From positions 236,220,001 through 236,284,000 of the forward strand of contig OZ024741.1 in the NCBI GenBank assembly GCA_964016885.1: 64,000 bases of DNA, in the 5' to 3' direction. Positions 33,030 through 60,910 of this stretch are shown piece after piece; the first letter of the stretch is position 1; each line of letters begins with the position of its first letter. Source of the DNA: Eledone cirrhosa. Taxonomy: Eukaryota. Both the position numbers and the translations under genes were made by a program. Under the pieces are notes generated by a model. That model was not told the origin of the DNA, ran no database searches, and saw nothing but the letters and a program-made list of their open reading frames with translations.

Positions 33030-35300
33030 TATGGGATAACAAATTATCGTTATAGGTAATCCAGTTAGAGGTTGTGAATACTCCGTATTGTGGATAGTTT
33101 TAGCGTACGGCGTTGTTTCACTCAACAAGAGGTTTCCTTAGGCAGCGAGTTTGCGAGTCCTCGGGAATTCCTATGCTGGTTAATCTTGGAGTAATAATAG
33201 TGAAAGAGTGAAGAATAACATGGTCAACAGTACAAAAAGGGTTTTATTTACAGTATTAACAATTGTTTCATTGATTAAGTTATCTAAAAAGTTCATGCTT
33301 ATCTTCTAACCTAGAGATTTTTAATGAACACGCTAACTACTACAACATAGCTTTACTTAAGGCAGACCACAAAGAGAGGCTCAAATACATACCAGATACG
33401 AACAACAACACACTTAACAGCAATAACACCACCCACACCTATAGAAATAACAAATATAGGACTAAACCTAGAAATAGACAACGAGCACCAGAAATAAATG
33501 AACCGAATACTAATATAAGGACCCCTAGGAACTATAGAAAATCCAGAGATAAGGAATACTTATGGTTCAATCCAATATATAACTCCTCTATAAAAACCAA
33601 ACTACCTTCTATATTCTTTAAATTAATTGACAAGCACTTCCCTAAACTTCACAAATACCAGAAAAACTATCAAACTATCTTACTCTACTGCAGCCATACA
33701 TAAAATTAACTATAAAAGAATCTCTAATGAAAATAACCTACAAACAAACACCATAACACCAAACATCGCAACCACACACACGTCAGAATGCATCACAACA
33801 AAACATTAACAAACCCAAATCTCAGCCCATACATAACAACATACAAAACTGCATCGATGAACCAGCACACAGGAAGGCCTCAAAATGTAACTGTCATTTA
33901 CCGGATAAGTGCCCACTACAAAATAGATGCCTGGGATCAAATATAGTGTACCTGTGTACTATTAATTCAGGCAACTTAGCATGGCACTAGATAGGTTCTA
34001 CGGCGGGGGAGTTCATAAAAAGATGGTACGTCCACAGACATTCTATAAAGAACCGTAGACTAATGAATACAACAACGCTCGCCAATAAAATCTGGCAGCT
34101 TAAAGATACAAACCAGGAATATGGGATTAGCTGGTCGAAACTGTCAGGGGCAAAGGCCTACAAAAATGGAATGTCCCACTGTGGACTTCGTAATATGGAG
34201 TTGCTCCATATTTTAAAATATGACAAAATGCTGCTTAACAGCAAAATAGAACGGTCAATTTTCTGTAGGCATAAAGCTACTAAATTCGCTAATTTTAAAC
34301 CAACTTGATTCGACCCAACACTTCCATAATTCAAACTCTACCACCTGAGTCTATAACCCGTTATTATTATTATAAATTGTCAATTAGGGCGGTGGATTGG
34401 CAGTCGGACATCATGCTTTGCAGCATAGAGTTACGTCTCTTTACGATCTGAGTTCAAATCCTGTTGAGGTTAACTTTGCCTTTCATCCTTACGGGGTCGA
34501 TAAAATAAAGTACCAGTAATGCACTGGGATAATTGGTGGCCTTGTGCCAAAGGTAGAAACAATTATTATTAACTGTCAATAAACCAACTAATCACTGAAT
34601 GAACATCATAACCTCCTAACTTTTCGTTCTTTCATTCTCTTTCCCTAAATATATTTGACCTCTTACATTATATCCTATCGTATTCTCTTCACTTCTAACA
34701 TAACTTCCAATTTATTAATTTATTAATTTATCCTGTATTTAGCACTGTACTATTTCTTCATAATATAATTTAACCAATACACATATATGTATATATTTAG
34801 TATTTTCATGTTTATACCATCACATCTTTATATTTTAACCACCACCACCACCACCACAACTATTTTCAACAATCATATTATGTTCACTTTTCTTCACACA
34901 CTAATACATTTTTTACTTATTTTTTATCATCTTCATTCTAACTTATTTATTATTATTTATTTATTATTTTTTCTTTATCTTTTATCTTTTTTCTTTTTTC
35001 TCTTTTCTTTTTTCTTTTTCTCTCTCTTTTTTTTTTCTTTTTCTCTCTCTCTTTTTTTTCTTTTTCTTTCTTTATTACTGATGTTGTGATTTGAATTTTT
35101 CTAGTATATTACAAACGCCGTGCATAATTTTAATCAGTTTTTCCGATGATTTGATTAAGCATACATTGTATTTAAAATTGAGTGACAGAACTTCAAGTGA
35201 TTAGCAATTTTTAGGCAACTTAATCAATGAAACAATTGTTAATACTGTAAATAAAAGCCTTTTTGTACTGTTGACCATGTTATTCTTCACTCTTTCACTA
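33030..35300 (+). mobile_element. 5'-truncated Naiad-type PLE with inverted 5' pLTR piece
   Basis: LWFNPIY, CNCHLPDKCPLQNRC, IVYLC..*IGST, LANKIW..LLNSKIE..CRH; 33198-33281 is the inverse of 35218-35300; OK SINE inserted at 34386-34570. Confidence 0.85.
35135..35247 (+). ncRNA. Hammerhead variant with long stem II insertion
   Basis: CCGATGA t TTGATTAAG..~60 nt..CTTAATCAA t GAA ACAATTGT t AATACTG. Confidence 0.65.
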
Positions 35301-36304
35301 TATATATATATATATATATATATATATATATATATATATATATATATATATATATATATATATATATATATATATACTTACAATTGTGAGCTCAACATTC
35401 TAACCACTAAGCCACGCGCCTTCACAAACACACAGACGCACGCAAATATATATTGAGTTCAGAATTGTAAGGTTGTAAGTTTGAATCCTGGACCGAGCTG
35501 TGCAGTGTGTTCTTGAGCAAAACACTTTATTTCACGTTACTCCAGTTCACTCGGCTGTAGAAGTCAGTTGATCGCCCATTGCCTTTCCCTTGGACAACAT
35601 CAGTGGCGTGGAAAGGGGAGACTGGCATGCAGGTGCAACTTCTGGTCTTCCATAAACACATTTTGCTCAGGCTTGTGCCTCGGAGAAAAGCTTTCTGGGT
35701 ACAAAACCACGATATATATATATATATATATATATATATAATATTAAACCGTTGAAAAATCTCGCAGTAGAACAACCCTAATCCATGAATATGAATACAA
35801 TAACACCAAGTTACAATCCATTACTATTCAAACATTCAATACAAATATAACTTAACATATGTAATGGATATGAAATCTGTAACTTTCATATTCTACACAC
35901 ACAAATTTGAACTATACAGAAAATATCATCGCATTACATCCTCCATAATACACTAACACATTCGCTTAAAGTGCTTGTATTTTATGTAATACCTTGCCAT
36001 ACAGTACTCATATATGCATAATACATTTGCTTGTTTCCTTCCCATATATATGACTAACGCATGTACTATCTCTTTAATTATTAGACTATTCTCTTGTATT
36101 ATCTGTCGCATGTATTCCACTCAGTGCTTTTAATTTTTAATTTTAATTTAAATCTTAATTTGAATTATTGTACAATTCTCGTATAATATATGTCGCCTCC
36201 ATTCCACCCTATAAACATGAAACTGTTGTCCACAACATCAATATATATGTATCTGTATGATTCTTCAGTTGAATAGGAGGTTAATGATATGTACAAACAT
36301 TGAT

Positions 36305-36356
36305 AATGCTCCGAGGAATCCAAGCTTAAGTTTGGAAGAAACAATTGTCAGCGATT
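36305..36356 (+). ncRNA. Hammerhead ribozyme (U4C variant)
   Basis: GCT CCGAGGA a TCCAAGC ttaa GTTTGGA a GAA ACAATTGT C AGC. Confidence 0.7.
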
Positions 36357-58400: not shown

Positions 58401-59059
58401 TGAAACGATATTTCATTTCCCACTCTTAGTACGGCTGTTACTTAAATATAAGTATGTACACGTACATACATATATGTATACCGACGTACAGTAGTATGTA
58501 TATATATATATACATACATGCACACATATACATACTACTGTACGTCGGTATACATATATGTATGTACGTGTACATACTTATATTTAAGTAACAGCCGTAC
58601 TAAGAGTGGGAAATGAAATATCGTTTCATTTTTTCCGTTTATCGTTTTCGGTGCACCCGGCCGATTAACCCACTCGATATGCATATTGGGCTACTCGGCC
58701 GTCAATATGCATAAGGTAAGTATATACGTTCAACAATCTGGCAGGAAGGTATACGTTGCTGACGATAGCTAACAAGCTTGAAACTAGTACAGCGTTCCTT
58801 TGTCAGTGTTGAACAAACGAGCAACGGTGGTTGCTAGACACTACGGCTTAATACGGGATGTTTGTTTACAAACACACCGAGCATTATAATAAATGTTCGG
58901 TGAATCCATACGTGCATATATATATGTGTGCATGTATGTATATATATATATACATACTACTGTACGTCGGTATACATATATGTATGTACGTGTACATACT
59001 TATATTTAAGTAACAGCCGTACTAAGAGTGGGAAATGAAATATCGTTTCATTTTTTCCG
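55493..59059 (-). mobile_element. Retrozyme-like tandem array: 7+ near-identical 422-bp units plus ~1.25 inverted units
   Basis: Marker ggaaaaaatg at 55861, 56283, 56705, 57127, 57549, 57971, 58393; inversion at ~58530; one HHR per unit; (TA)n flanks. Confidence 0.92.
55702..55744 (-). ncRNA. Hammerhead ribozyme of the 422-bp unit (repeats every 422 bp up to 58234-58276; + copy at 58753-58795)
   Basis: ACGTTG CTGACGA t AGCT aaca AGCT t GAA ACTAGT A CAGCGT. Confidence 0.88.
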
Positions 59060-59349
59060 TATATATATATATATATATATATATATATATATATATATAT
59101 ATATATATATATATATATATACATATATATACACATATATTCAAATATATATATACATACATACACACGTAGATACATATGGACAGTTAGCTTCTCGCTA
59201 CAACAATTTCTATACTTTTCATTTATATACATATATACATATATAAATGAGAGGTATAGAGATTGTTTTAGCGAGAAGCTAACAGCATTCTATAACATAT
59301 ATGCGACATATATATATATATATACATATATATATATACATATATATAT

Positions 59350-60910
59350 ATAAGAAAATACATAAATATTATATATATATAAAAATAAAAAGGTGGAAGG
59401 GGTAAACAAATAGTTGGGAATACGACAAATAATAAATAAATAAATAAATAGATAACGGTATAAATGTTTATAGCTGATTTAGAGCATTCAACAATTTCTA
59501 GAGCAAATAATCAATGAAAATAAACATTAAATCACTGTATGTAATTATGCATACAGATATATATAATTATATACACATATATATATACATATATATATAT
59601 ATATATACATATATATATACACACACATATACATACACACAGAAATAAATATCTATAAATAAAAAAGGTGGGTATGTAAAGGGTAAGATAGAAAGTAAGG
59701 GGGGGGGGGGGGATAAGGAAAATAAATAACATAGGAAAAGGTTTAAATATAAGGGGATATAAGGGAGAAAAAGAATATAAGAGTACAGAAAGTGAGTTCA
59801 GAGAGTAATAAAAATCGTAATGGATGTAAGGCGTAGAGAGCAGAGAAGAAGTTCAAGGTGGTTGAGTCATCGTAGGAATGTCAATCCAGTTACAGATCAG
59901 ATGTGATTTCAGGTGAGGACAACATCTGAAGATCTCGGTCTTGGAGTTCAGGCAAGTTGAAGTGGCTTTCAAGTTTTGTAGAATCCTAAATTGTTCAGTG
60001 GTATACAAAGAACAATTCTTTGTGCCCCTTTGGTATTCTCTCGAATGGTCTAAAATACACCAATCGATAGAGTACGGGATGTTTTTATCTTTGAATTCCC
60101 ACACCTTATTTGCGAGAGCCGTTGCTGTTCTTTTATCAGGGTGTTTAAAAGAAGCGACATGTGCATAAAACCTGGTTTTGAACCTGTCCTGAGTCATGCC
60201 AACATATCGTTCACTCCTGGCTGGCTGGTTGTTAATTAAAGGTGTCACTTTGGCCTCATATACAACGGATTTGGTATTACATTTGCCCTGTAATGGGCAT
60301 TCATCCGGCTTCCTGCAACTGCATCCTGGATTTATTCTCGTACGATTAGAATTAGTGATTTTAGACTTCATTGATTGGCAGCAAGAGTAACTGATTTTAA
60401 CTACATTTCTATTACATATCTTATAATATCTATGATATTACTCTCTGAACTCACTTTCTGTACTCTTATATTCTTTTTCTCCCTTATCTCCCCTTATATT
60501 TAAACTTTTTCCTATGTTATTTATTTTCCTTATCCCCCCCCCCCCTACTTTCTACCTTACCCTTTACATACCCACCTTTTTTATTTATAGATATTTATTT
60601 CTGTGTGTATGTATGTGTTGTGTATATGTGTATGTGTATATATATATATATATATATATATATATGTATATATATATATATATATGTGTGTATATAATTA
60701 TATATATCTGTATGCATAATTACATGCAGAGTGATTTAATGTTTATTTTCATTGATTATTTGCTCTAGGAATTGTTCAGTGCTCTAAATCAGCTATAAAC
60801 ATTTATACCTTTATCTATTTATTTATTTATTTATTTATTTATTATTTGTTGTATTCCCAACTATTTGTTTTTATTTATATATATATATAATATTTATGTA
60901 TTTTCTTATA
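59350..60910 (-). mobile_element. 5'-truncated Naiad-type PLE with inverted 3'-UTR copy
   Basis: ORF 59853-60371; 59350-59810 is inverted at 60437-60910. Confidence 0.85.
59853..60371 (-). pseudogene. Naiad Zn-knuckle plus GIY-YIG endonuclease fragment (172 aa)
   Basis: CSCRKPDECPLQGKC, VVYEAKV..RYVGMT..FKTRFYAH..LNSKTE..CPH. Confidence 0.88.

Follow-up and report, generated by a model that had tools for sequence, protein, structure and literature searches.

Head-to-head hammerhead-like repeat arrays in (TA)n tracts of Eledone cirrhosa, likely inserted by enzymes of Hydra-clade Penelope-like elements

A stretch of 64,000 nt from the genome of Eledone cirrhosa (C2:236220001-236284000 of the 3.0-Gb assembly), in the following called the window, contains two non-coding tandem arrays with hammerhead-like motifs, which were termed array A and array B. 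Each array consists of two arms that meet with their 5' ends, point outward with their 3' ends, and end at two different, fixed 3' termini in (TA)n tracts. The same arrangement was found at further loci of the genome, in four non-coding families, and in copies of Penelope-like elements (PLEs) with an open reading frame (ORF). The arrays can best be understood as metazoan retrozymes without long terminal repeats (non-LTR retrozymes), which were likely inserted into (TA)n by the reverse transcriptase (RT) and the GIY-YIG endonuclease (EN) of a PLE of the Hydra clade, and a probability of about 0.7 was assigned to this reading.

Architecture of the arrays and of their relatives in the genome

The arms of the arrays and of the PLE copies in the window were mapped by self-BLAST and Tandem Repeats Finder (TRF), and the ORF remnants by tblastn with homologues. 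Array A spans 43824-45269 with a period of 466 nt, and array B spans 55489-59064 with a period of 422 nt. Two fixed 3' termini were distinguished in each family and named X and Y by their unit position. The arms and the tracts next to array A are:

43733..43825, no strand: (TA)n tract, adjoins array A at the 3' end of its left arm (TRF and sequence)
43824..44422, - strand: left arm of array A, 1.28 units; 3' end of type Y at 43824, unit position ~314
44421..45269, + strand: right arm of array A, 1.82 units of 466 nt, with core starts at 44471 and 44937
45267..45617, no strand: (TA)n tract; array A (+) reaches it with its X end, opposite the 3' end of a PLE-like copy on the - strand
55489..58534, - strand: long arm of array B, 7.2 units of 422 nt, 99.8% identity (TRF)
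58526..59064, + strand: short arm of array B, 539 nt, 1.28 units, inverted relative to the long arm; core starts at 58759

In both arrays the core motif CUGANGA...GAAA is on the minus strand in the left arm and on the plus strand in the right arm, and, thus, the 5' ends of the arms meet and the 3' ends face outward. Which arm is called the inverted one is arbitrary; the robust description is that the arms are head-to-head, and never tail-to-tail. In array A, self-BLAST aligned the left arm (43824-44422) in reverse complement to 44602-45200, with 99.7% identity over 599 nt, and the right arm ends with type X at unit position 383, directly after the hairpin AACGAAACGAAATTTAATTTCGTTTCGTT. In array B, each unit of the long arm contains the core CTGACGA..GAAAC. 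This arm ends with type Y (...CATACTTATAT) at 55489 and adjoins an (AT)n tract at 55468-55496, and the short arm ends with type X (...TTTTTTCCGTATAT) at 59064 and adjoins a (TA)n tract at 59060-59163.

The two arrays are distant relatives, and the hammerhead, a TA-rich stretch, the 3' hairpin and the end ...TTTAT are colinear blocks of both. The GC content of the unit is 0.36 in array A and 0.39 in array B. Neither of the units has coding capacity, the longest stop-free stretch in a trimer of the unit being 60 aa for array A and 53 aa for array B. Inspection of the ends revealed no LTR, no ends resembling a primer binding site (PBS) or a polypurine tract (PPT), no direct terminal repeats, and neither poly(A) nor a 3' tail of the type of long interspersed nuclear elements (LINEs). 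In the E-value mode of Rfam, the array junction 58397-58632 and the (TA)n/(CA)n tracts matched models of miRNA precursors with up to 101 bits. These matches (MIR6217, mir-5014 and mir-297, from plants as well as animals) were rejected as palindrome artefacts of the TA-rich tracts and of the junction.

Two further non-coding families, C and D, are represented in the window:

40978..42093, - strand: family D, long arm, non-coding; terminus X at 40978, adjoins (TA)n at 40944-40977
42094..42480, + strand: family D, inverted arm; terminus Y (...CATAACAATAT), adjoins (AT)n at 42477-42513
43326..43733, both strands: family C, short hammerhead-bearing head-to-head pair; - arm to ~43480 (Y end), + arm from ~43481 (X end)
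60939-61187, + strand: family C, single-arm copy

The elements of family D are not arranged in tandem, and their 5' end is recurrent. Its element in the window has no ORF and carries the hammerhead-like motif on the minus strand at 41220 and on the plus strand at 42310, i.e., head-to-head. The 57 nt to the left of position 41034 are also element sequence, as 39 other loci matched the whole 223-nt query. At two loci of this family, L116 and L120, the inverted piece comes from further upstream than the direct piece, and it ends at unique sequence instead of Y and (TA)n. These two loci look like the classical twin-priming pattern of LINE-1, beside the usual X/Y form.

The orientation of the arms was the same at the two-armed loci sampled across the genome. 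The loci were the best-scoring matches in all families. For family B, to which array B belongs, the sample comprised the window and 27 further loci out of 513 first-look candidates, and for families A and D it comprised 5 and 12 loci, respectively, from the whole genome. Family B was two-armed at 24 of the 28 loci, and all 24 read minus then plus, i.e., head-to-head; the other four loci had a single arm (L058, L059, L061 and L066). The arms of family A were head-to-head at four loci and single at one, and a tail-to-tail arrangement did not occur (0/5). In family D six loci were head-to-head and six had a single arm. Other head-to-head cases in the window with an assignable sense are 43326-43733, 54452-54791, 29842-30085 and 20740-20991. 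A tail-to-tail pair without flank between the arms was not found among the sampled loci. Two neighbouring pairs of family B that read plus then minus turned out to be separate insertions at distances of ~100 nt and 1.1 kb, with intervening flank sequence.

The outer flanks were also characterized. An end was counted as TA-alternating if at least 80% of the first 20 nt outside of the arm alternated, and 42 outer ends of 21 family B loci were classified. TA-alternation was found at 33 of them, and most others were TA-rich variants. The background was 4.7% of the 20-mers of the window and 7.9% of flanks more than 500 nt away. For the elements of the window, 10 of 12 outer ends abutted (TA)n at first count. 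The two apparent exceptions dissolve, because 57 nt and 153 nt next to them belong to the elements, and the true ends, 40978 and 33041, also abut (TA)n. Strand-asymmetric repeat variants were colinear on the plus strand on both sides of an insertion, namely ATAAAT (L043), ATATAC (L050) and TATATTT (L069), and the single arm of L058 has a short (TA)n also at its 5' end. The idea that (TA)n is a tail made by the element was rejected, since tails made separately would be mirror images, and the flank variants are colinear. The (TA)n is thus the pre-existing target and not a tail. Separate insertions that face each other tail-to-tail always have (TA)n between them (45267-45617 and 33022-40), and the common (TA)n target explains why PLE copies lie near the arrays. 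At 15 of 21 loci the plus strand of the left flank had more C than G, but this excess lacked significance and was not considered further.

A first-pass annotation of the window had already placed the inverted segment always at the 5' end, and this holds for the PLE copies of the window, for the 41034-42480 element and for both arrays (self-BLAST and motif strands). The elements were also said to be bounded by (TA)n throughout; after correction of the ends the local elements indeed abut (TA)n, with the restriction that the ends of the copy at 59316-60943 are not exactly placeable. A tabulation of arm orientation and flanks at sampled loci, in line with the check that had been proposed, gave head-to-head arms (24/24 two-armed loci of family B), and not a random distribution, and LINE-type tails or LTR-type ends, named beforehand as contrary findings, were absent from the arrays. 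That PLEs commonly carry a 5' inverted partial copy is in agreement with what is published on their insertions (PMC8557442).

The two fixed 3' ends were paired in nearly all cases. In family B, X reads ...TTTCATTTTTTCCGTTTAT and Y reads ...GTACGTGTACATACTTATAT, 59 nt upstream of X. Both ends could be typed at 22 two-armed loci (L057 and L060 were untypable), and 21 of them had one X and one Y; of the four single arms, three have an X end and one has a Y end. In family A, X is at unit position 383 after a perfect hairpin and Y at 309-314, all three typed loci were X/Y, and the single arm ends at X. The distance is ~93 nt in family C, for which the one typed locus was X/Y. All four loci of family D with terminal inverted arms were X/Y, as was the copy in the window. 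The same pairing was observed for ORF-bearing elements. In the PLE copy 33041-35305 the inverted arm ends with X and the direct arm with Y, and at two more loci of this family a full-length match faces a match that stops at Y. In a young PLE family with an ORF of 713-715 aa, Y (...CATAATAATAATA) and X (...ACTTCATTTATA) are 66-70 nt apart, and its locus L104 is Y/X. Across all families the spacing is 57-153 nt. The 5-nt end motifs TTAAG (Y) and TTTAT (X) are common to arrays A and B and to PLEs of the L104 type. As described in the sections of PMC8557442 on insertion, PLE insertions often carry an extension ("tail") of 30-40 bp at one end only, which is not seen with target-primed reverse transcription (TPRT) of LINEs. 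The X/Y pairing corresponds to this one-sided tail.

The hammerhead-like core was compared with Rfam. At the gathering score, Rfam detected no family at all in the 64-kb window, and hence no hammerhead. Array A matched Hammerhead_HH9 with 30.4-36.5 bits, which is below the gathering score of 52. The motif of array B aligns with that of array A (72-74% identity over 54 nt) and has a CUGACGA core, a helix I of 6 bp, a helix II of 4 bp closed by AACA, and the palindrome ACUAGU at the expected place of helix III. A palindrome at this place is the form of the dimer-type hammerheads of PLEs, which were reportedly described by Lunse et al. in 2017. In family B, 169 hammerhead segments were identical over 90 nt. 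Older copies of this family, 84-97% identical, have kept the core, and one of them has a swap from U.G to G.U in helix I. The hammerhead folds had z-scores of -2.7 to -2.9. Taken together, the sequences indicate a ribozyme-like fold under constraint. A well-formed small hammerhead motif, CTGATGAAGGACTAGCGTCCGAAACGTT, occurs elsewhere in the window on the plus strand at 16496 and 18628, within a segmental duplication (15289-16631 and 17343-18763, 96-98% identical).

ORF-bearing Penelope-like elements and their clade

The window contains the following copies of PLEs with ORF remnants:

33041..33290, - strand: inverted 5'-truncated arm of a PLE; terminus X at 33041, adjoins (TA)n at 33022-33040
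33284..35305, + strand: direct 5'-truncated copy of the same PLE; ORF remnants at 33284-34305 (~aa 440-710)
45617..49770, - strand: PLE-like copy, possibly composite; RT ORF 49512-47353, inverted 5' piece 49672-49770
59316..60943, - strand: older 5'-truncated PLE copy; EN part of the ORF at 60518-59868

By tblastn, the ORF remnants were placed at 33284-34305 (+), 49512-47596 (-) and 60518-59868 (-), and the first and third of them represent the C-terminal part of the ORF. The inverted pieces 33194-33290, 49672-49770 and 60436-60943 each lie 5' of the respective ORF remnant. In the first copy, the outer 153 nt of the inverted arm form a one-sided tail, which belongs to the element, since 39 other loci match the whole query. 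The direct copy ends with terminus Y (...CTTTCACTAT), adjoins (TA)n at 35299-35376, and is interrupted by a SINE-like insert at 34403-34571 (SINE, short interspersed nuclear element). The second copy has its 3' end at 45617 and a degenerate hammerhead-like motif at 45736-45713. Possibly two elements are combined in this copy, since the sequence of its 3' part is similar to the terminus of another family. In the third copy, the inverted arm (60436-60943, plus strand) is 88% identical to 59316-59810, and both ends of the copy are inside TA-rich sequence.

Two fragments of related elements were also noticed. An 87-nt fragment at 32936-33022 (plus strand) represents only a PLE-like 3' end (...TTTTCACTAT) with (TA)n on both sides, and it faces the X end of the 33041 arm across a (TA)n of 19 nt. 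The ~250-nt fragment at 20740-20991 contains only the 5' region of the 49770 family, made up of a head-to-head palindrome and another ~90 nt. Its end is in (TA)n and a 3' part is missing, which is unexpected from a simple 5' truncation; a later deletion at (TA)n may be the cause.

The coding sequences were compared with homologues. The open frame at 49524-47353 (minus strand) has 723 aa, the homology begins at 49512, and the homologues have ~700 aa. In an alignment with six homologues, the frame contains the RT motifs, RW(R/K), DKT and CxCX5C, followed by the start of GIY-YIG. The motifs of the local ORF (P0001) read RLRWRAF (RMRWKAF in the homologues), SDKTGNLY and CNCRNRVDC. In the homologues the RT motifs are followed by ..VY..Y(I/V)G.T, i.e., by a C-terminal GIY-YIG EN, and RCxLCLxEK and CRHxN are found near the C-terminus. 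The EN is present at 33823-34305 and at 60518-59868, and in the ORF 49512-47353 it is cut off after ~aa 590. At this place, ~1.8 kb of C-rich, CA-rich low-complexity sequence (45990-47750, minus strand), which translates as runs of proline, histidine and threonine, replaces the GIY-YIG end. Pfam gave no family for 13 local ORF translations, and a weak match to RVT_1 was obtained for one homologue. The names of PF26215 and PF28514, precomputed for homologues, were not used, because a local Pfam scan of those homologues had no match to them.

For the clade assignment the criteria given in PMC8557442 were used. Its section 11 characterizes the Hydra clade by the RWK motif, the change from DKG to DKT, the linker CxCX5C, a C-terminal EN and a length below 3 kb. 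Further criteria in this source are a canonical hammerhead, insertion into (TA)n, and an EN that has no CCHH and instead has CxxC and CxH around a conserved E and N. The Neptune clade has the linker CX2-5CxxC and CCHH in the C-terminal EN, and CxCX5C is the modified form of the Hydra clade (PMC8557442). Naiads have an N-terminal GIY-YIG EN and DKA and are without canonical hammerheads, and according to the same source cephalopods keep only old remnants of them. The local family resembles the Hydra clade in having one ORF of ~700-715 aa, a C-terminal GIY-YIG EN, an RWK-like motif, DKT, CxCX5C, and putative CxxC plus CxH motifs near the C-terminus, as well as hammerhead motifs, insertion into (TA)n, an inverted copy with 5' truncation and a tail at one end. 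It differs in the length of the tail, which is 57-153 nt here and 30-40 bp in PMC8557442, and in the tandem period of the young family, which is ~4.7 kb in comparison to "<3 kb" for the Hydra clade in that paper. The local RT/EN is not a Naiad, because its EN is C-terminal, DKT is found instead of DKA and hammerhead motifs are present, and it is not a Neptune, because the linker reads CxCX5C. Judged by its motifs, it is assigned to the Hydra clade.

This corrects one part of the first-pass annotation, which had named a Naiad or Neptune RT. The other part of that proposal, that the arrays share the insertion signature of PLEs, stands with the head-to-head arms, the (TA)n and the paired X and Y ends. 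An autonomous/non-autonomous system within one window, as had been suggested, is overstated, since all three local ORF copies are defective: one has its EN cut off, and two are 5'-truncated.

Longer open frames exist elsewhere in the genome. When 194 aa of EN from the window were used as query, 60,841 first-look candidates were obtained; ~25 matches had the same score, and several were in open frames of 713-715 aa. From the number of candidates and the open frames it can be concluded that the genome contains this PLE clade as a major component that was active recently. In the young family (L104, at C3:285685300-285691900, and L105-L111) the terminal segment has a CTGAGGA..GAAAC motif and ends against (TA)n. 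An internal (TA)n lies ~200 nt past the stop codon and is followed by a second, diverged hammerhead segment (82-90% identical) and TG-rich repeats, which are common to the loci.

Mode of insertion and alternative explanations

The inner junctions are informative about the origin of the arms. The arms of family B begin at an arbitrary unit phase, which was different at every locus (24/24 two-armed), and inner junctions had either an overlap of 0-9 nt or a filler of 2-36 nt. The copies are 99-100% identical over at least 8 contigs, and, because the junction phases differ everywhere, each locus represents an independent event. An origin of the inverted arm by snap-back (hairpin) or fold-back was rejected, since it predicts symmetric junctions, and the phases of the arms differ at every locus. 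The subfamily SNPs (single nucleotide polymorphisms) 55G/61C are shared by the two arms of a locus.

The arrays also expand in tandem after insertion, which accounts for at least part of the arm length. The clearest case is L047_71 (C1:392884000-392898000), which has a plus arm of 16 units. The 13 outer units, which are contiguous, carry a C to T exchange (CTGACGA to CTGATGA), and the 3 inner units and the whole other arm are without it. A similar block of variant units (TTTAAA, 3 units) is present in L066. In L051 (C1:231810500-231817500) two copies of a segment comprising the Y end and at least 57 nt of unique flank lie ~2 kb apart, which is either a local duplication including part of the array or a duplication in the assembly.

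Based on these sequence features, mobilisation of the arrays in trans by PLE enzymes is suggested, which could proceed as follows. After the EN has nicked the two strands of (TA)n, one of the 3'-OH ends would serve as primer for cDNA synthesis at the RNA 3' terminus X, and the other one would prime at the internal position Y, 57-153 nt upstream (twin priming). The resulting antisense cDNAs would be extended toward one another until they are joined by microhomology. With this mechanism, only head-to-head products with the 3' ends against the target are expected. The enzyme is predicted to hold the RNA by the hairpin-containing segment from Y to X, and arms of several units would be made from a multimeric or circular template. 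The open frames of 713-715 aa and the 60,841 EN candidates are a possible source of the enzyme.

Several results weigh against this interpretation. Within one insertion, the parts of the unit covered by the two arms often coincide, e.g., 1-1116 and 773-1060 in family D. Because of this overlap in the template, two template copies, or one that is re-used, are needed, and classical twin priming on a single RNA is insufficient. Since the blocks of variant units show expansion after insertion, the length of the arms is no proof of a multimeric or rolling-circle template. Two loci, L063 of family B and L105 of the young ORF-bearing family, are X/X. Arrays A and B share no sequence with any sampled PLE beyond the 5-nt end motifs, and families C and D and the 33041 family lack the TTAAG/TTTAT motifs. 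The hammerheads are imperfect: among the three cores of array A one is canonical, one (44087-44057, left arm) has an exchange of G12 to A, and one has a mismatch at 15.1/16.1. The core of array B is non-canonical, with a U.U mismatch at 10.1/11.1, and a 501-nt search of array B with Rfam gave no hammerhead match even at E<=10. In addition, best-scoring matches are not a random draw of loci.

The overlap of the arms can be accommodated if the PLE particle holds two copies of the RNA, possibly paired via the palindromic helix III (ACUAGU), or one unit-length circle, with the starts at X and Y on opposite strands. This extension is tentative and rather doubtful at present. A single unit-length circle as the cause of the X/Y pairing was weakened by family D, which is non-tandem and has the same pairing, so that a circle is not required. 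If the two-template version were true, the arrays would be the first record of PLE integration at base resolution, and the hammerhead would have a role in pairing or circularising templates besides cutting.

Insertion by PLE enzymes has to be weighed against four other explanations. The arrays could be satellites that arose from terminal repeats of PLEs and spread only at the DNA level, so that the head-to-head form would go back to one ancestral insertion. The contiguous blocks of variant units (in L047_71 CCC and then 13 T, and TTTAAA in L066) and the duplicated end plus flank of L051 fit this view, and a 2026 preprint, in the parts on array growth, favours local amplification after insertion (10.64898/2026.07.22.740005). 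However, DNA duplication of one locus would carry the junction and the flanks along, and the 28 loci on at least 8 contigs, in spite of 99-100% identity, differ in junction phase and in the microsatellite variants of the flanks and have precise X and Y ends. Spreading as satellites is therefore unlikely. Fold-back at the DNA level, either as palindromes at fragile (TA)n or as Foldback-type DNA transposons whose arms consist of tandem subrepeats, is very improbable. It is true that (TA)n can form cruciforms and that Foldback elements have long arms of variable length made of tandem repeats. But the junctions are asymmetric, with unlike arm phases at all 24 two-armed loci of family B, the outer ends are unlike (X and Y), so that terminal inverted repeats do not exist, and copies with a single arm and the same X end as well as ORF-bearing retroelement copies of the same form were found.

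Another retrotransposition machinery could have been used, i.e., the RT of a LINE, as for SINEs, or that of an LTR element, as for plant retrozymes. Twin-priming inversions are also known for LINE-1, and SINE-like repeats are present in the window. The absence of poly(A) or LINE-type tails and of LTR, PBS or PPT-like ends speaks against both machineries and makes them improbable. Furthermore, in the sections of PMC8557442 on insertion the (TA)n target is tied to the linker domain of the PLE endonuclease, and the one-sided tail is described as PLE-specific and unseen with LINE TPRT. Lastly, the inverted junctions might be assembly artefacts, e.g., palindromic chimeras of long reads. Such structures are reported to trouble assemblies in the section of Craig et al. 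that treats them (PMC8557442), and an independent contig across the junction in the window is lacking: among the contigs of other runs none bridges the junction of array B, and the family B unit is found at very high summed depth (run X3). But chimeric reads would give perfect palindromes, and the junctions are asymmetric. Moreover, each structure has matching microsatellite variants on its two sides as well as X and Y ends and is seen in four non-coding families as well as in ORF-bearing copies, and, thus, an artefact is hardly credible.

Relation to known elements

The kind of element is known, and its dependency on PLEs has been proposed before. Tandem hammerhead repeats were described in 2020 as non-autonomous "non-LTR retrozymes" (Cervera & de la Pena, PMC7229834), and a derivation of retrozymes from PLEs has been argued for vertebrates on the basis of co-distribution and terminal-repeat phylogeny (Li, Clavereau & Pollet 2026, 10.64898/2026.07.22.740005). 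Both sources, in their passages on origin, propose that metazoan non-LTR retrozymes represent non-autonomous relatives of PLEs. Arrays A and B resemble these retrozymes as non-coding tandem repeats of a few hundred nt, with low GC content and without LTR, PBS or PPT. Metazoan non-LTR retrozymes have a type I hammerhead in each unit, whereas here the motif of array A is sub-threshold and the core of array B is non-canonical. In contrast to the retrozyme descriptions, the arrays have two head-to-head arms, a (TA)n site and fixed X and Y ends. Word searches of the available text of the 2020 paper and of the 2026 preprint returned nothing on the insertion architecture (inverted arms, target site, microsatellite). 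A loose literature search found no report of retrozymes in cephalopods, which is weak evidence of absence, and nothing relevant was found that combines PLEs, twin priming and the head-to-head form.

For PLEs themselves, the sections on insertion of Craig et al. 2021 (PMC8557442) describe that a 5'-truncated copy is found in inverted orientation at the 5' end, that a tail is present on only one side, and that the Hydra and Naiad clades prefer (TA)n targets. The arrays differ from Hydra-clade PLEs in lacking an ORF and any detectable similarity to the sampled copies. The mechanism of PLE integration is still unsolved, and the same paper, in its discussion of these structures, calls for an in vitro system to explain the tandem and inverted structures of PLEs and their microsatellite bias. 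The genome of E. cirrhosa offers dozens of young, near-identical and undecayed insertions, from which the rules of integration can be read. The link between retrozymes and PLEs previously rested on co-distribution and terminal-repeat similarity. As far as can be judged from sequence, what is added here is evidence from the insertion sites that passengers and ORF-bearing elements follow the same rules. That these rules also hold for ORF-bearing copies is the most direct evidence that sequence alone can give for one machinery making both. The one-sided tail becomes a testable prediction, namely initiation at X and Y.

A further comparison is possible with LINE-1, for which Ostertag & Kazazian are said to have explained 5' inversions by twin priming in 2001. 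The arrays have in common with LINE-1 twin priming the head-to-head form, microhomology or a short filler at the junction, and a second primer inside of the RNA. Unlike in LINE-1, the inversion is the rule (24 of the 28 loci of family B), the second start is fixed at Y, the template parts covered by the two arms often coincide, and both ends are in the microsatellite.

The last example is the partnership of SINEs and LINEs. Here as there, a non-coding element whose defined 3' end follows a hairpin would make use of the RT supplied by an autonomous element. The 3' end sequence of a SINE is normally also that of its LINE partner, but a shared 3' end of the arrays and the sampled PLEs was not found. 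The SINE-like sequences of the window belong to a repeat of ~190 nt, which contains ...GGTTCAAATCCCGCCG... and looks like a tRNA-derived SINE. It is present in both orientations with 85-96% identity at 9734-9947, 31302-31490, 34403-34571, 49918-50127 and 50431-50811. The copy at 34403-34571 lies inside the 3' part of the PLE copy 33041-35305, and the one at 50431-50811 is a tandem pair.

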